From contig JBGUGE010000002.1 of NCBI GenBank assembly GCA_045111335.1, positions 1,032 through 65,031 on the forward strand: 64,000 nt of DNA, read 5' to 3'. The position numbers were made by a program, and so were the translations under genes. Below are positions 16,513 to 51,724 of this stretch, piece by piece. Source of the DNA: Alphaproteobacteria bacterium. Lineage in GTDB: Bacteria; Pseudomonadota; Alphaproteobacteria; RF32; CAG-239. The stretch's first letter is position 1. Each line of letters begins with the position of its first letter. Under the pieces are notes generated by a model. It was given only the letters and a program-made list of their open reading frames with translations. It did not search any database and was not told where the DNA came from.

Positions 16513-16529
16513 TGCTCTTTCTTTATTTG

Positions 16530-16625
16530 AAGGCGAAGGGACTTAGACCTTGCGACTATCGTTACGGCTGCTTCCTTCCGAATCTGACCGAGTTGGCGAA
16601 AACACAATCCTAAGCCCTTCATAAA
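16530..16625 (-). ncRNA. ffs: signal recognition particle RNA (4.5S/SRP RNA, small bacterial type)
   Basis: Minus-strand sequence ...gucagauucggaaggaagcagcc... matches the conserved domain IV motif. 5' gaagggcuuagg pairs with 3' cuaagucccuuc. Sits directly upstream of dnaX. Confidence 0.75.
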
Positions 16626-37609: not shown

Positions 37610-38365
37610 TTACTCACGCAAATAGGTGTAATAACGCAGCGCAAATGAGCAGGAGCGCTGTGTACCGCAGTTGCATCCGTCTGCCGCCAGCTCCGGCGTA
37701 AACGGAGTAGGGTTCATTTCGTCATTCGGCTTAGCAACGTTCATCCTTATCGGCTGCGGCAGTTTGACCAACTTTTTTTGGCCGCCGGGGATTGCCACTT
37801 CAACTATTTCATCTTCGGTGATTTCTTCTATATCACGCAAAGCGGTATCTACACCGTTTTCATCAACATAACCGAGCGCAACCGAAATCAGGCCGCTTTC
37901 TTTCCCGCCCCAATCTAAATATGACAGTGCCATACATACATCTTTTTTGAGCCCCTGATAGGCAATTTTGAAGGTAGGGAAAGTCTCTTCTCCTCGAATA
38001 ATCGGGGTTGATGAAGAAACGGCAATACCTCCGCCGTAAATATTGACGAGTTTACCGTCCTGCACCAAAAAATTCGGCATAGTGTTAGATTGCGCCATCA
38101 GTCGCATAATATCTGTTTTGGTGGCGGTATTAACGGCATAAGTGGTGCGAACATTGTCAATCAGCTGCGAAATCTGGTTAACAGTGCGGTTCAAATCGCG
38201 GTTGAATGTGTAGCGGTTGACCGCCCAAATGGTCAGGCGCGAGAACAAAAGCAAAAAAATGCAACCGAACGTAATCAGAAAAATGCGCTTGAGTTTTTTA
38301 TGATTGCGGTCATAAAAATCAAAAATTTTTTCGATATTCGATTCCGGCTCTTGAATTCGCATCAT
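37610..38365 (-). CDS. membrane-anchored protein, unknown function
   Basis: One N-terminal TM helix. 251 aa. Confidence 0.4.
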   Translation of the reverse strand: MMRIQEPESNIEKIFDFYDRNHKKLKRIFLITFGCIFLLLFSRLTIWAVNRYTFNRDLNRTVNQISQLIDNVRTTYAVNTATKTDIMRLMAQSNTMPNFLVQDGKLVNIYGGGIAVSSSTPIIRGEETFPTFKIAYQGLKKDVCMALSYLDWGGKESGLISVALGYVDENGVDTALRDIEEITEDEIVEVAIPGGQKKLVKLPQPIRMNVAKPNDEMNPTPFTPELAADGCNCGTQRSCSFALRYYTYLRE

Positions 38366-42069: not shown

Positions 42070-42102
42070 ATACCCCCGAAAAGTATCGGGGGTGTTTTTT
42101 AT
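42070..42102. terminator. bidirectional Rho-independent terminator
   Basis: acccccga aaag tatcgggggt followed by a T-run. Between convergent genes. Confidence 0.65.
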
Positions 42103-43512: not shown

Positions 43513-43678
43513 CTTTTATACGCCTCTCTTGTTTTTGCCATACTACTCCCTTTTCCGAATCGATTCGGAAAATTATATTGAAAATATAATCCTCTTTTAT
43601 TTATTTGAAAAGTAGGCACTTTTAAGACTCATAGTTTCCTGAGGGTAACCAATATAGAAAAATCGGCTCTTTGCGGTA

Positions 43679-45142
43679 TCAGTTGCTCAGCTTAAACCAT
43701 TCAATCGGCAGACCGTTAATCACAATAAAGGCGATAATGATGCAAATATAGCCGTAAATTTGCAACATGCTCAATATATTTTGATATTTTCTTCCCGGCA
43801 GTTTGGGTGCTAAGAAGTTCAACAGGCGATTAATGCCTATAACACCGAGCGTGACGAGAATCAGCTGCGTGAATACACCGGCACTGAGCAGAATATCTTT
43901 GAATACGCCGGCAATTTTATATAAAAACGTGAAAAACAGCAAATAAACCGCCAGCAGACCGTATAACAGATAATTACCGATGTTTTTGATTTGCTCTTTT
44001 TCTAATTTGGCCTTGCGCAGATTTTCGGTGGCTAATTTTTTGATGCTTAAACCGCGCACGGTCTGCGGTTTTTCTTGTTGTTTTTTATAGTTTTCAATCT
44101 GTTCTTTGCATTTTTCCGCCACTATACACAAACCGCAACCTTTCGGCGTGAAATAAATGTGATTTTTATCTTTTTTGCACTGTTTGTAGTGGTGTCTATC
44201 CAATAAATAAGCCAAGTGGGTTTGCCACTCGAGTGCGGTAGGTCGTTCGCCGCCCTTGGTAAAAGCCCGCTCAAATAAATTCATGGTTTCTTTATGCAGA
44301 TAGTCATGAATACTGTACGGATTAGGCATTTGATACGAATCCGGCCAGAAGCCGTAGGCATAATGATATCCGGCAATTCGCTCCTGAATGGAAAGCATAT
44401 CGCCGGTTTTGCGCGGGGTTCCCGAAAACGGATGAATACCCTCGTTCAAAAGTTTGAAAATAATCACCGCCAATGCAAATTTATCCTGTTCTTCGCCCAT
44501 TTCCTTACAGGTGAGGTTCATTCCCTCAGGATAAATATATTCTTCGCTCACAAATTCTGCCGGATAGCGGGTATCTTTTTCGCCTTTAATCGAAAAACCG
44601 TCGCAATCAAATGCCACAACCAAAGGCTCTTTTTTATACACATATACGTTTGACGGTTTCAGATCGATGATATAGTGGCCGCGAACGTGTAATTGTGCCA
44701 CAACCGTGGCGATGTTGAAAGCTGCAAAAACACGCGTTCTGTAACGCTCGGGCAAACCTAAACGTTGGCGCACCGCTTTTTGAATGAGGTGGTCAAGTGA
44801 GACGGCCTCGTTTGTATCAATTTCCGGCATTAAATAACCGACGCAGAAGCCTTGAGAATCTTCCAAAAGAGCAGTCGGCCAGGTAATTTGAATATATTCT
44901 ACGCCGTCATTGTCCGTAATGTTTGGAATATTCGGCCGATTGAGCAGCATAGCCTCTAATTTCTGGCGGTTGGTATCGCTACGCTCTTTTTCATGAAAAA
45001 TTTTAGCCACACTGTGCGAATGAGTGGCATCACGATAAATTTTTCCGGCGGCTCCGCCTTTGTTCAACAGCTCGCCGAGAGTTACTTTTTCGTTGTGGCC
45101 GTCAGGGTATAAAGCCAAATATGTCATACCGGTTTCACTCAT
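43679..45142 (-). CDS. Hanks-type Ser/Thr protein kinase-like protein with Cys cluster and C-terminal multi-TM domain (TerY-P triad kinase)
   Basis: Gly loop GGAAGKIY, VAKIF (VAIK-like), catalytic loop IIDLKPSNVYV, AFDCDGF (DFG-like). Cys cluster CKKDKNHIYFTPKGCGLCIVAEKC. Then 3-4 hydrophobic helices. Confidence 0.6.
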   Translation of the reverse strand: MSETGMTYLALYPDGHNEKVTLGELLNKGGAAGKIYRDATHSHSVAKIFHEKERSDTNRQKLEAMLLNRPNIPNITDNDGVEYIQITWPTALLEDSQGFCVGYLMPEIDTNEAVSLDHLIQKAVRQRLGLPERYRTRVFAAFNIATVVAQLHVRGHYIIDLKPSNVYVYKKEPLVVAFDCDGFSIKGEKDTRYPAEFVSEEYIYPEGMNLTCKEMGEEQDKFALAVIIFKLLNEGIHPFSGTPRKTGDMLSIQERIAGYHYAYGFWPDSYQMPNPYSIHDYLHKETMNLFERAFTKGGERPTALEWQTHLAYLLDRHHYKQCKKDKNHIYFTPKGCGLCIVAEKCKEQIENYKKQQEKPQTVRGLSIKKLATENLRKAKLEKEQIKNIGNYLLYGLLAVYLLFFTFLYKIAGVFKDILLSAGVFTQLILVTLGVIGINRLLNFLAPKLPGRKYQNILSMLQIYGYICIIIAFIVINGLPIEWFKLSN

Positions 45143-45891
45143 TGCATTTTAGCCCATAAAATTGTTTTATCATCGGCATTTAATCGCCGCGCCCGCACAT
45201 CATCAAGGGTATTTTTGAGCGCCTTAACCGCATAAGTTTGTCGCGGTTCGTTTTCCAAATATTCTACAATAGGCAACAAAAATTTGTGATGAATCTTGTA
45301 AAAATCGTCAGAGAATACAAATCCGGTTACACCGTCGGTCATCAACAGCAGCCTGTCAACATATTCAAACGGAGTGAAACGCAGGCAATCCTGCCAATCA
45401 TCCATAGTGTAAAAATAGGTTTCGCATGAAAAAGCGCCGTTTTCCGGTTCGGATATAATCAGATTATCATAAGAACCGACACCGAACGCAATGCCCGCGC
45501 CGTCGCCGATGTGGAAAAATATACCGTTTCCGTTATGATAGAAAAATCCGACCAAAGTGGCGGAAAAATTAATCAAATCATCGGTGCTTTTGCTTTTATT
45601 GAAACGGTGCAGAATCAGCTTTTGGCGCGCAATATTAATCGCCGCAATAACCGATTGCCGAATATTGCGCATGCTGGCTTTAATCAGTAAATCACACAAT
45701 GTTTCGCAGATTATTTTGGCTCCGATTTGGGCATATTTGGCCGAGCCGGCACCATCTGAAATTATGCCTACGGCCTTGTTTTTATGTTGCCGATAGCAAG
45801 CGTAATCCTGGCACGGCAAACCGTTGGCCTTATGCAAAGCCCCACGAACCGAAACGGATAAAAGCCGTATGTTGTTGCTATTGGTAGGCAT
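45139..45891 (-). CDS. PP2C-family Ser/Thr phosphatase (PP2C_2)
   Basis: LPCQDYA ... ISDGAGSAKYA ... HIGDGAG ... MTDGV motifs. Overlaps the kinase start by 4 nt. Confidence 0.6.
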   Translation of the reverse strand: MPTNSNNIRLLSVSVRGALHKANGLPCQDYACYRQHKNKAVGIISDGAGSAKYAQIGAKIICETLCDLLIKASMRNIRQSVIAAINIARQKLILHRFNKSKSTDDLINFSATLVGFFYHNGNGIFFHIGDGAGIAFGVGSYDNLIISEPENGAFSCETYFYTMDDWQDCLRFTPFEYVDRLLLMTDGVTGFVFSDDFYKIHHKFLLPIVEYLENEPRQTYAVKALKNTLDDVRARRLNADDKTILWAKMQ

Positions 45892-45896
45892 ATTTT

Positions 45897-46577
45897 TTAC
45901 TTTTCATTCCACTCCGTTATGTCGTCAAGGTAGTTGTTGGCATTAGGCGCCGCTTTTGAAATGCACGAAACACTGCGACTGAGCCAGAGGAAGAATTCGG
46001 TGAATTTCAGTCCGGTCAGGCGTTTGGGCGGTAACATCGAAAATTTAGCCAATTTATCCAAATTTGCGCCCTGAGTGCCGATGGCATGAATAACAACTTT
46101 TTTGTTTTTCTGAGCATAGCGGCAGATTTCTGCCGAATCTTCCCAACCGTAATCAGTAGGTTCTCCGTCGCTTATAAGGAAAATCCACGGGCGCTTTGAG
46201 GTTACTCCGCAACTGTCATAGAGGCATTTTTGCTCCTCAATTTTTTGCAACGCCATTTCCATGGCCTTACCGAGCGGAGTCAAACCGCCGGCCTCCATTA
46301 TCGGTGCGGTAAAATTCATGGCATCGGTCCAATCTGATTCGATTTTGACTTCGTCTTTGCCGAAAGCCTTGATGATAAGCAACTGCACACGCGAACTGGC
46401 ATCAATGTCGTCTTTTAATTCCTTTTCCAAAGCCACCAGGCCAGCGTTCAGCTGTTTAATCGGCTCGCCACGCATCGAACCCGAGCAATCAAGCACCAAC
46501 ACGCACGGTGTGCGCTCATTGGCGTTGTCGGCAAATTCGACATAGGGAATACGTTCAATTGTGTTATTATCAGCCAT
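45897..46577 (-). CDS. TerY-like von Willebrand factor A domain protein
   Basis: MIDAS DCSGSM...T...ISDGEPTD. 226 aa. Confidence 0.65.
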   Translation of the reverse strand: MADNNTIERIPYVEFADNANERTPCVLVLDCSGSMRGEPIKQLNAGLVALEKELKDDIDASSRVQLLIIKAFGKDEVKIESDWTDAMNFTAPIMEAGGLTPLGKAMEMALQKIEEQKCLYDSCGVTSKRPWIFLISDGEPTDYGWEDSAEICRYAQKNKKVVIHAIGTQGANLDKLAKFSMLPPKRLTGLKFTEFFLWLSRSVSCISKAAPNANNYLDDITEWNEK

Positions 46578-46582
46578 ATTGT

Positions 46583-46726
46583 TTACTCCTGTACGCGCGG
46601 GTAGCTGTGCGGAAAACCGCTGCCTTCAACCGGATGCGGGCGAGAATAGCGTCCGCAAGCGGTCAAGCTTGTTGTTATAAATGCCGCAAATAAAAACAGC
46701 ACAAATATTTTCCATAGATTTTGCAT
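46583..46726 (-). CDS. small lipoprotein (47 aa)
   Basis: Not in the track. MQNLWKIFVLFLFAAFITTSLTAC lipobox. Directly upstream of the vWA gene. Confidence 0.3.
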   Translation of the reverse strand: MQNLWKIFVLFLFAAFITTSLTACGRYSRPHPVEGSGFPHSYPRVQE

Positions 46727-46822
46727 TTATTAACCTTTTTTTTGAATCTTGAGATTATATTTATCATAATATCGGTTAAAAGTTAAAGATAATTTATATT
46801 TTTCGCAGAAAGTTGTTAATTA

Positions 46823-47380
46823 ATGCATAAAATTTTGAAAATATGTATCGTTTTGCTGACATTTGTGTGGGGAGCAACCGCCGATGCCAAAATCAATATG
46901 TTTCAGAAGGCGCGGTATATTCCGCAGCTGAGCATTTATGATGACAACGGAAATGCGTATAAACTTTCGGATTTCAAGTCATCTGATTTATTGATGGCGG
47001 TGGTGTGGTCAAAAACCTGCGGTCCGTGTTTGAAAGATTTGAAGCATTTGGGACGCTTTGTTAAGCGGACCATGGGCAAAGGTATTGAGGTTATTTTGAT
47101 ATCTCCGGAAAATGAGTGGAAATCGCCGGCGGATAAAAGGGCGTTTTTGAAACGGCTCGGCGCTGATAATATGGTGAGCTATAACGATCGTAAATCAAAT
47201 TTTCGCGGCGGTATGGCGATTGCGGTAACTCCGACGGCAATTTTGGTAAACAAAAACGGTGAAGAAGTAGGGCAGATTACCGGCTCGACCAATTGGGACG
47301 ATGATAAGGTAATCGAATATATGACAAATTTGCGAGATGAAGTTTCAAAAAAGCTTGAGCAGAGCAAAGCCGCCGATTAA
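46823..47380 (+). CDS. TlpA/redoxin-like periplasmic thiol:disulfide oxidoreductase
   Basis: Signal peptide. Thioredoxin CxxC (WSKTCGPCLKD). Confidence 0.6.
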   Translation: MHKILKICIVLLTFVWGATADAKINMFQKARYIPQLSIYDDNGNAYKLSDFKSSDLLMAVVWSKTCGPCLKDLKHLGRFVKRTMGKGIEVILISPENEWKSPADKRAFLKRLGADNMVSYNDRKSNFRGGMAIAVTPTAILVNKNGEEVGQITGSTNWDDDKVIEYMTNLRDEVSKKLEQSKAAD

Positions 47381-47972: not shown

Positions 47973-48620
47973 TTAAGGCAAAAACTTTTGAATTTCAGCT
48001 GTGTCTTGATGTCTATCCACATAAAAAATGCGTTGGTGCGGCAGAGTATGGCGTGCGGCAATAAATTCCGGCGTGTATTCAATCCATACCGCCTGCGGCT
48101 GATTCTTTTGCAAATAAAAGGCGGCGGCGTCGATGTTATGCACCTCAAAATACGAGATATTACGGGCTGCCAACCATTCATGCAGTTTGTCCGTATGAGG
48201 CGAGAATTTATCTAAAAGCAGCAATTGCGGATTTTTATGGCCGAAGCTGTAACTTTCTACGATGTCTGCCAATTTGTGAAAATCAAGCGGCATGGTCAGA
48301 TAATGCGCCACGCGCGGATGCACTTCAAAAGTTTCACCGACAGATCTCATAATGATAATCGGGTAATGCCGGGTACCGGTTTCATTTTCAAAACTTTGGA
48401 TGGTTGCGGCGGTCTGTTTATCGGTTCCGCTCAAATTGAAAATCATTACATCGGGGCTGAGTTCGTGCGCATACTGCAAAAATTGATAGATATTATCGGT
48501 GGTAAACGTTTCAAGCGCCTTGTTGTCAAACATATCAGCAAAGGCCGATTGCACACCGCGTTGCGCATCATAATAAAAAATATTCCCGTAATTTGACTGC
48601 TGTAACATATATTTCTCCAT
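47973..48620 (-). CDS. hypothetical protein
   Basis: 215-aa ORF, no recognised motif. Confidence 0.35.
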   Translation of the reverse strand: MEKYMLQQSNYGNIFYYDAQRGVQSAFADMFDNKALETFTTDNIYQFLQYAHELSPDVMIFNLSGTDKQTAATIQSFENETGTRHYPIIIMRSVGETFEVHPRVAHYLTMPLDFHKLADIVESYSFGHKNPQLLLLDKFSPHTDKLHEWLAARNISYFEVHNIDAAAFYLQKNQPQAVWIEYTPEFIAARHTLPHQRIFYVDRHQDTAEIQKFLP

Positions 48621-51084: not shown

Positions 51085-51522
51085 TTATCTTTCCTCAAAA
51101 ATAACTTTTGCCTGTTCTAACCAGAAAATATGGTCGATAACCCAGTTGCTGATTTGCTCGATTTTTTCCATTTCGATGTCAAGAGCAATACCGACCTTGC
51201 CGATAAACAGCGTTTCTTCATCGGAAAGGATGTTATCAACATGCGACAGCATACACATTTCACGTATAAGCTCCATAGCTAAATGGCGATTTTTTATGAT
51301 TTTAACTTTTTTGAGTAATTTTTCTTCGTCCTCAAAGCCTTTCAGGGCATCTAAATCGGTGATTCCCTGAGTTTGCGCCGCCTCTTTGATAAACGTGATT
51401 TCGTTTTTATCGGTAAAACCGTCGGAATCGGCAAGATGGAGCAAAACTTGGAAAAATACCGCTTTTTCCTCCGGTGACGCCGCATCCAAATAAGACGGCA
51501 GAATGTTGGTAATGTTAGACAT
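51085..51522 (-). CDS. TerB-like (tellurite-resistance TerB / DjlA-N-like) domain protein
   Basis: LLHLADSDGFTDKNEITFI ... LIREMCMLSHVDNILSDEE pattern (two helix-Asp repeats). GGAGAAGG RBS 5 nt before MSNITN. Confidence 0.4.
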   Translation of the reverse strand: MSNITNILPSYLDAASPEEKAVFFQVLLHLADSDGFTDKNEITFIKEAAQTQGITDLDALKGFEDEEKLLKKVKIIKNRHLAMELIREMCMLSHVDNILSDEETLFIGKVGIALDIEMEKIEQISNWVIDHIFWLEQAKVIFEER

Positions 51523-51724
51523 ACACCTTCTCCTCAAGACATTAATATAGAGTGTATTTTAATCCAAACAATCTTAAAAAACCATAAATTTTATTGCATT
51601 ATTGTTTTAAATGTGCATTACAACGCGGAGCGCGGTGTTTTTTTGCGTAAAAGATAAAAAATATTTGAATTTTTTGTGATTATGTCTTAATGATGAAGAA
51701 TAATATAAAATCAGGGAAAGAGAA

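Follow-up and report, generated by a model that had tools for sequence, protein, structure and literature searches.

A YegL-PphC-YegI-type vWA-phosphatase-kinase triad as a probable core signalling operon of gut and rumen Alphaproteobacteria

The 64,000-nucleotide stretch of contig JBGUGE010000002.1 analysed here (the window) comes from an alphaproteobacterium and contains three tightly coupled minus-strand genes for a vWA protein, a PP2C-type Ser/Thr phosphatase and a Hanks-type Ser/Thr kinase. Together these are probably a chromosomal, vertically inherited phospho-signalling triad of the YegL-PphC-YegI (TerY-P) type – a core operon of a clade of gut and rumen Alphaproteobacteria, serving housekeeping rather than anti-phage functions. 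The family itself is already known; what is notable is its occurrence as a core, highly constrained operon with two constant extra partners.

The biochemistry of YegL/PphC/YegI-type triads is known from E. coli, with no known function or inducing condition, and it is mostly in the context of conflict or defence that TerY-P modules are discussed. In this clade the module has the behaviour of a core gene set. The locus speaks for a housekeeping signalling role in at least one branch of the family, and cautions against calling such triads defence systems by domain composition alone. The constant extra partners, a lipopeptide of about 20 amino acids (aa) and a FabX-like enzyme, are concrete candidates for partner tests.

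Gene order and family membership

The open reading frame (ORF) listing gives four consecutive, tightly packed ORFs on the minus strand. The first of the unit is a small lipoprotein gene (46583..46726, 47 aa; ORF listing, tblastn and alignment). It is followed by the gene for a TerY/YegL-type, predicted cytoplasmic vWA protein (45897..46577, 226 aa; Pfam, YegL alignment, AF2 and Foldseek), the gene for a PP2C_2 Ser/Thr phosphatase (45139..45891, 250 aa; Pfam and PphC alignment) and the gene for a membrane-anchored, YegI-like Hanks-type Ser/Thr kinase (43679..45142, 487 aa; Pfam, YegI alignment, AF2 and Foldseek). Read from the sequence, 5 nt separate the lipoprotein ORF from the vWA gene, with an AGGAG Shine-Dalgarno motif inside the end of the lipoprotein ORF, another 5 nt separate the vWA and phosphatase genes, and the phosphatase and kinase genes overlap by 4 nt (ATGA). 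All three triad proteins score above the Pfam gathering cut-offs: the vWA protein with 32.6 bits for VWA (PF00092) and 27.7 bits for VWA_2 (PF13519), the phosphatase with 115.5 bits for PP2C_2 (PF13672), and the kinase with 37.0 bits for Pkinase (PF00069). A search of NCBIfam with the proteins of the locus returned matches far below cut-off only, and no named equivalog.

Downstream of the kinase gene lies a gene for an NMO-family, FabX-like flavoprotein (PF03060; 42121..43512, minus strand, 463 aa; Pfam, tblastn and FabX alignment). Upstream, and divergent, is a gene for a TlpA/ResA-like periplasmic thiol:disulfide oxidoreductase (TlpA/Redoxin; 46823..47380, plus strand; Pfam and tblastn). This layout agrees with the initial annotation, made from the sequence alone, which had reported the three coupled genes with their 4-nt overlap and expected domains, the lipoprotein ORF just upstream, and NMO and TlpA-like genes on either side.

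In comparison with the E. coli K-12 yegI-yegL region, 211 of the 226 residues of the vWA protein align with YegL, at 43% identity (E 2e-51). The phosphatase is 25% identical to PphC/YegK from end to end (E 8e-13), with the metal-binding Asp46 in register. For the kinase the alignment with YegI spans residues 17-330, beginning at the G-loop and ending shortly before the Cys motif, at 30% identity (E 2e-28). JGI names of cluster members include 'YegL' and 'DNA-binding helix-hairpin-helix protein with protein kinase domain', the latter of which we take to be the COG label of YegI. On sequence grounds, the locus is a TerY-P/YegLKI-type triad, gene-for-gene homologous to YegL/PphC/YegI. It is placed in the TerY-P class because sequence and architecture agree (vWA, PP2C, kinase, Zn ribbon), and the assignment to this class made in the initial annotation is borne out by the one-to-one homology, the DxD loop and the CxxC Zn knuckle.

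YegI is an active Mn/Mg-dependent, Ser-autophosphorylating kinase of the inner membrane, without an external sensor domain, and its DSD loop is essential (bioRxiv 10.1101/819920). PphC is a Mn-dependent PP2C that is inactivated by the D46N substitution and dephosphorylates YegI (bioRxiv 10.1101/303594, 10.1101/819920). Homology to YegI and PphC suggests the same two activities for the kinase and the phosphatase here. The likeness extends to detail – the order vWA-PP2C-kinase is identical, and the 4-nt phosphatase/kinase overlap is present in most E. coli strains (bioRxiv 10.1101/819920). Also shared are the metal-binding D46 of PphC, the DxD[GS]F loop of YegI (DSDSF there, DCDGF here), a CxxC motif directly after the kinase domain (in YegI and in kinases from outside the clade), and C-terminal membrane helices without an extracytoplasmic sensor.

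There are also differences from E. coli. The kinase has 487 aa and three predicted helices, while YegI has 648 aa and is a two-pass protein, and the catalytic loop is the canonical D-x-K-P-x-N here but VGDxxQxS in YegI. Only here does a conserved lipoprotein gene precede the vWA gene and a FabX-like gene follow the kinase gene. The locus is fixed and constrained across the clade, whereas the E. coli locus varies among strains (yegJ insertion) and is hardly expressed.

TerY-P triads are described as combining a TerY-like vWA protein with a PP2C and a kinase that bears a zinc ribbon at its C-terminus (PMC11090510, PMC4978471). The locus has the make-up given for TerY-P/CoCoNuT triads in PMC11090510, but its context is a housekeeping one, free of McrBC/CoCoNuT, helicase, nuclease, WXG100/FtsK and other conflict-system neighbours, and a membrane anchor follows the zinc knuckle.

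Conservation and inheritance across the clade

In a survey that took a single genome for each bacterial species, 132 species encode a relative of the phosphatase, and 80 of these loci (50-90% identity) were analysed. All 80 lie in metagenome-assembled genomes (MAGs), from samples of rumen and of human, chicken, rabbit and other guts, and belong to uncultured Alphaproteobacteria. Several of these MAGs bear obviously wrong bin labels; Candidatus Scatocola, a named member of the clade, is placed in Rhodospirillales by NCBI, and the GTDB name of the lineage is RF32. The initial annotation had supposed an obligate intracellular host, which finds no support in the close relatives, all of them gut, rumen or faecal MAGs.

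The order TlpA(-) / lipoprotein-vWA-PP2C-kinase-NMO(+) is constant in each sufficiently long locus among the 80 (tblastn), with the lipoprotein gene upstream of the vWA gene in 77 of them, and one more MAG, whose outer flanks differ, also has the block from TlpA to NMO. At loci L001-L033 a DedA/unk215/FolD/DUF167/YggT block lies upstream of TlpA. In more distant species (L044, L046-L048, L051, L053, L054, L057, L060, L063, L064, L069, L070, L072 and L073) the DedA/FolD/YggT block lies downstream of NMO and is inverted. This placement fits an inversion of the TlpA-to-NMO segment, which thus survived rearrangement as a unit.

The proteins of the block differ in how far they have diverged from those of the window. 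Identity across species is 77-98% for the vWA protein (median 85%), 51-87% for the kinase (median 57%), 50-90% for the phosphatase (median 55%) and 61-97% for NMO (median 66%); for FolD it is 49-85% (median 74%), and for SecA, in the four nearest loci only, 92-94% (median 93%). More than half of the vWA columns (56%) are invariant, as against 23-25% for the kinase and the phosphatase. The rate of non-synonymous substitution (dN) to the nearest relatives is 0.018-0.042 for the vWA protein and 0.038-0.050 for SecA, so that the vWA protein changes more slowly than SecA. The kinase and the phosphatase (0.066-0.206) are at about the level of FolD (0.094-0.166). Taken together, the alignments point to very strong purifying selection on the triad block.

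In pairwise distance between species, the triad genes correlate with NMO, FolD and DedA (Pearson 0.87-0.95) as closely as NMO and FolD correlate with each other (0.93). Because the correlations match this housekeeping control, the module appears to have co-diverged with the host genomes. The composition of the locus is in keeping with the rest of the window (GC 0.43-0.44 in both). No integrase, transposase or tRNA gene is near the locus, and no tRNA genes were found across the 64-kb window. A Pfam scan of 18 adjoining proteins found no defence or mobile neighbours. The surrounding genes are ordinary: SecA, parvulin, FolD, DedA/VTT, YggT, DUF167, an Mla transporter, a pilin-like protein and a radical-SAM methylthiotransferase-like protein.

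The initial annotation was therefore right to note the lack of a mobile-element signature. It had also called the module unusual for its host, and possibly an insertion. This is contradicted by the same block order across the loci of 80 relatives, by co-divergence with housekeeping genes and by the strong purifying selection. Among the sampled relatives the triad is universally conserved with housekeeping synteny, which is the outcome that the initial annotation had itself set against its reading.

Outside the clade the picture is different. An exhaustive search of 50%-identity cluster representatives revealed a gap in vWA identity between clade members (at least 76%) and the next full-length relatives (about 50%), which are found in Roseiarcus, Sphingomonas suaedae, Myxococcales and others. 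Three such triads lie, respectively, beside DDE transposases, beside a ribbon-helix-helix/PIN pair and a bacteriocin exporter, and beside a phage-type integrase. None of the three contexts includes the lipoprotein, NMO or TlpA neighbours, and the kinase tails differ. In the Roseiarcus sp. MAG (L084, 8001-13724) the phosphatase gene is followed by a gene for a protein of no more than 245 aa and then by DDE transposase genes; the kinase of this triad looks as if an insertion sequence had disrupted it. Plasmids (2,328 records, mostly large enterobacterial conjugative ones) also carry TerY-type vWA genes, more distant and often in several copies, none of them more than 60% identical. The mobile contexts and plasmids outside the clade mark the wider family as accessory and mobile; this branch, by comparison, is a fixed part of the core.

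Two records labelled 'Bacteriophage sp.' carry a vWA gene that is 80-88% identical. The one examined, MT836238.1 (L087; 'UNVERIFIED: Bacteriophage sp.', human faeces, 11.7 kb), gives no evidence for a phage-borne copy. It has the whole chromosomal TlpA-lipoprotein-vWA-PP2C-kinase-NMO block, which marks it as, most likely, DNA of bacterial origin within a virome data set.

Protein architecture and proposed mechanism

Residue conservation was read from alignments of 76 kinase sequences, 81 phosphatase sequences and vWA sequences across 80 species. The kinase catalytic domain (residues 1-315; 44198..45142, minus strand; alignment and AF2) has invariant residues throughout – the G-loop GGxxG, K47, D160-L-K-P-x-N165, D179-C-D181-G-F, and S184 and S199 of the activation segment. 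The DCDGF string is the YegI-type DxD loop, which replaces DFG. Directly 3' of the kinase domain is a Zn knuckle or ribbon (44123..44185, minus strand; alignment and AF2) in which C322, H328 and C336-x-x-C339 are invariant and are candidate Zn ligands. The AF2 model of the kinase (pLDDT 80) has a kinase fold over residues 1-315, the small Zn knuckle with short beta elements at residues 320-331 (pLDDT about 90), a helix, a disordered linker and three long hydrophobic helices. Foldseek matches of the kinase are eukaryotic-type kinases, PknB among them.

The three helices, at about residues 392-414, 417-445 and 457-475 by hydropathy, form a predicted C-terminal membrane anchor of poorly conserved sequence (43709..43981, minus strand; AF2 and hydropathy). 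Neither the AF2 model nor the hydropathy plot has an extracytoplasmic domain. Lys/Arg-rich stretches are on the predicted cytoplasmic side, which implies that the protein is exposed to the periplasm over a very short stretch only and lacks a sensor domain.

The phosphatase keeps D46 (in ISDGAGS; 81 of 81 sequences), HIGDGA, MTDG and DDKT. The vWA protein has no signal peptide. Its MIDAS (an adhesion site that depends on a metal ion) is complete (D30-x-S32-x-S34, T100 and D137), with the codons for D30-C-S-G-S34 at 46476..46490 on the minus strand (ORF translation and alignment); the DCSGSM string is the one picked out in the initial annotation. By AF2 (pLDDT 82) and Foldseek it is a single domain of standard vWA fold with disordered ends, and the disordered segment at the N-terminus contains a conserved motif. 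The last helix is Ser-rich and strongly conserved (WLSRSVSCIS, residues 198-207), is present in YegL too, and might be a candidate phospho-acceptor region. The archaeal vWA protein ArnB is the sole sequence match in the PDB (E 5.7e-4) and is also among the Foldseek fold matches.

The 47-aa ORF has a signal peptide, a lipobox (LTAC) with its Cys, and a mature peptide of about 20-23 aa. In an alignment of 48 full-length ORFs the mature motif CG[RK]xSxPxP[IV]EGSG[YF]PHxYP is conserved, so the ORF is, judging by this conservation in related species, a genuine gene of a lipoprotein family. Identity with LptM was considered and rejected: one of six members matched LptM_cons, at 15.7 bits against a cut-off of 27.3, and that match was confined to the signal peptide and lipobox.

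A mechanism can be proposed from this anatomy. The kinase would be held at the inner membrane by its three C-terminal helices, with the catalytic domain and Zn knuckle in the cytoplasm. As there is no periplasmic sensor domain, activation would come from the membrane or the cytoplasm, possibly by way of the co-encoded lipopeptide. The kinase would autophosphorylate on the activation-segment serines and then phosphorylate its target, and the phosphatase, translationally coupled to it, would reset both kinase and target. The cytoplasmic MIDAS vWA protein would pass the signal to a conserved cellular partner, and the module would serve the physiology of the host, in envelope, membrane or stress regulation. 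A role of this housekeeping kind is suggested by the evolutionary pattern.

In this scheme the vWA protein is most likely a substrate or a phospho-dependent adaptor, because of its invariable co-occurrence with the other two proteins, its extreme constraint, and the precedent of ArnB. This MIDAS vWA protein is switched by the Hanks-type kinase ArnC and the Ser/Thr phosphatase PP2A, and a zinc finger docks onto it (PMC12852372). The likeness is one of analogy, not orthology. The zinc-finger element that contacts the vWA protein in the archaeal module is the separate protein ArnA (ZnF-FHA), while the zinc element is fused to the kinase here. The archaeal phosphatase is of PP2A rather than PP2C type, and the FHA partner is absent from the locus. 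ArnB also has an inserted beta-sandwich (PMC12852372) that the 226-aa vWA protein lacks.

Several points weigh against a vertically inherited housekeeping triad of this kind. The idea of the vWA protein as substrate is drawn by analogy, and the phosphosites of ArnB are on a C-terminal helical bundle (PMC12852372) that is absent from the 226-aa protein. The E. coli homologues are barely expressed in the laboratory and are without a known physiological role (bioRxiv 10.1101/819920); a study of the RNase E interactome and one of the Rcs system offered no usable hints to what YegI and PphC do. The core status rests on synteny and co-divergence in 80 of 132 species loci rather than on a census of presence and absence. 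The rate of synonymous substitution (dS) is saturated (>1) and omega is rough, so the comparison of rates is confined to dN and identity. All relatives in the clade are MAGs, and the evidence is of the sequence-based kind throughout. A defence system that has since become fixed in the clade is an unlikely but conceivable alternative, and an ORF with a TerB domain 4.5 kb away may be a remote link to Ter-type stress systems.

Competing readings, the downstream gene and the surroundings

Four other readings were weighed. In the first, a mobile or conflict-type triad has been domesticated in the clade into a near-essential five-gene unit for envelope or membrane homeostasis, made up of the lipopeptide, the vWA protein, the PP2C, the membrane kinase and the FabX-like enzyme; the vWA protein would change more slowly than SecA owing to its docking onto a universal cellular machine. 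We consider it unlikely. If it were true, the clade would be the first physiological handle on YegL/PphC/YegI.

The second holds that the locus is a TerY-P anti-phage system, in which the kinase/phosphatase/vWA switch senses infection and triggers growth arrest or another protective response, along the lines reported by Gao et al. 2020 for a stand-alone TerY-P. Its three-domain make-up is that of a TerY-P triad, TerY-P-like modules protect against T7-like phages (PMC7699616, PMC11090510), and the relatives outside the clade are in mobile or toxin/antitoxin-rich contexts. The kinase weakly matches the PADLOC kinase components MkoA and PD-T4-6 (E 6e-7 to 8e-4), but this is generic kinase similarity, since YegI yields the same matches. 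Neither the vWA protein nor the phosphatase has a PADLOC match even at E<=10. As a control, E. coli YegL meets the 'TerY' model at E=0.032 only, and the triads from outside the clade do not meet it at all, which indicates that the catalogued defence TerY-P is a separate, narrow branch. The protective TerY-P kinase is fused to an OB fold (PMC11090510), where this kinase has a Zn knuckle and three membrane helices. Adjoining defence or mobile genes were not found among the neighbouring proteins scanned. The fixed position in 80 species, the housekeeping-like divergence and a vWA protein slower than SecA are the opposite of patchy, fast-turnover islands. A defence role is, on this evidence, quite unlikely. 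The initial annotation thus stands in its family assignment, while the host lifestyle, the unusual status and the link to anti-phage systems that it had made do not.

It is just as improbable that the triad is the signalling arm of a Ter-type response to tellurite, metal or oxidative stress, with the MIDAS sensing metal and the phospho-switch reporting it. Anantharaman et al. 2012 suggested a metal-sensing switch for TerY-P triads, as cited in PMC11090510. The vWA protein is of the TerY/YegL type with its many plasmid relatives, and the divergent neighbour is a thiol:disulfide oxidoreductase of the TlpA type. A 150-aa ORF at 51085-51537 (minus strand), 4.5 kb away, matches the TerB domain with 30.4 bits (cut-off 24.4), and such an ORF stays close to the triad, at a few kb, whichever of the two gene arrangements the relatives have. 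However, the match is short (residues 20-63), the ORF is part of a different syntenic block (YggT/DUF167/FolD/DedA), and no TerC, TerD, TerZ/A/E/F or associated biosynthetic genes are among the 18 neighbouring proteins scanned.

The last reading turns on the NMO gene, which directly follows the kinase gene in the same orientation in each sufficiently long locus. The spacer between them is 64-150 bp, with exceptions of about 625 bp in L010 and L015. The strongest terminator-like hairpin of the region (42072..42093, minus strand; 8 pairs, 6 of them G-C, with a T-rich tail) comes only after the NMO gene, and nothing comparable is between the kinase and NMO genes. NMO is possibly co-transcribed with the triad. 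Its closest solved structure is FabX of H. pylori (E 2e-22, residues 12-303), a [4Fe-4S] flavoenzyme of unsaturated fatty acid synthesis (PMC8626469). NMO has four invariant Cys (C381, C384, C388 and C410), of which C410 aligns with the FabX cluster ligand C320. FabX itself joins an FMN TIM barrel to a C-terminal 4-Cys [4Fe-4S] subdomain. However, the spacing is CxxCxxxC rather than the CxxxCxxxC of FabX (PMC8626469), and NMO has about 100 extra residues. The NCBIfam score for FabK is far below cut-off. Identity of NMO is 93-97% among the seven species nearest to the window and falls to 61-67% in the most distant ones. It may be a FabX-type enzyme in gut alphaproteobacteria, going by its alignment with FabX, and as a constant downstream gene it offers a concrete, if weak, lead to the output of the triad.

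A role in membrane-lipid homeostasis – in which the kinase, having no periplasmic domain, reads a property of the bilayer and controls or is co-expressed with the FabX-like NMO, and the lipoprotein modulates it – is unlikely as well. Neighbouring genes may be inherited together within one clade without being linked in function, the triads outside the clade have no NMO neighbour, the spacer holds a promoter-like site and palindromes, which hint that NMO may be regulated separately, and the FabX assignment is tentative.

Of these palindromes, the one in the window (TTTTCCGAATCGATTCGGAAAA, 43551-43572) is perfect; its core TTCCGAATCGATTCGGAA is kept in L001, L002 and L004 and has two changes in L005. 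In another subclade (L010, L036-L038, L042 and L080) the same spacer has a different palindrome, ATAGTTTC-N4-6-GAAACTAT. These could be operators of the NMO gene. The idea of an operator or terminator conserved between kinase and NMO was rejected: the palindrome of the window is found only in the nearest relatives, and there is none in most loci. A promoter-like site, TTAACA-17-TAAATT (46791..46819, minus strand; a consensus match only), lies upstream of the lipoprotein gene, in the divergent spacer that this gene shares with tlpA.

A few other features of the window may be recorded. Between DedA and FolD is a 215-aa ORF (47973-48620, minus strand), which matches nothing in Pfam or NCBIfam. 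It keeps its synteny in the relatives but evolves fast (26-76% identity). The sole Rfam match in the window is the bacterial small signal recognition particle RNA at 16529-16623 (minus strand, 59.2 bits). A gene for a pilin of the PilS/Bundlin type (type IVb-like) is at 37610-38365 (minus strand), and a related MAG (L082, 5150-7293) has three tandem genes for PilS/Bundlin-type pilins together with genes for an ATPase and a platform protein of the type II secretion system type.

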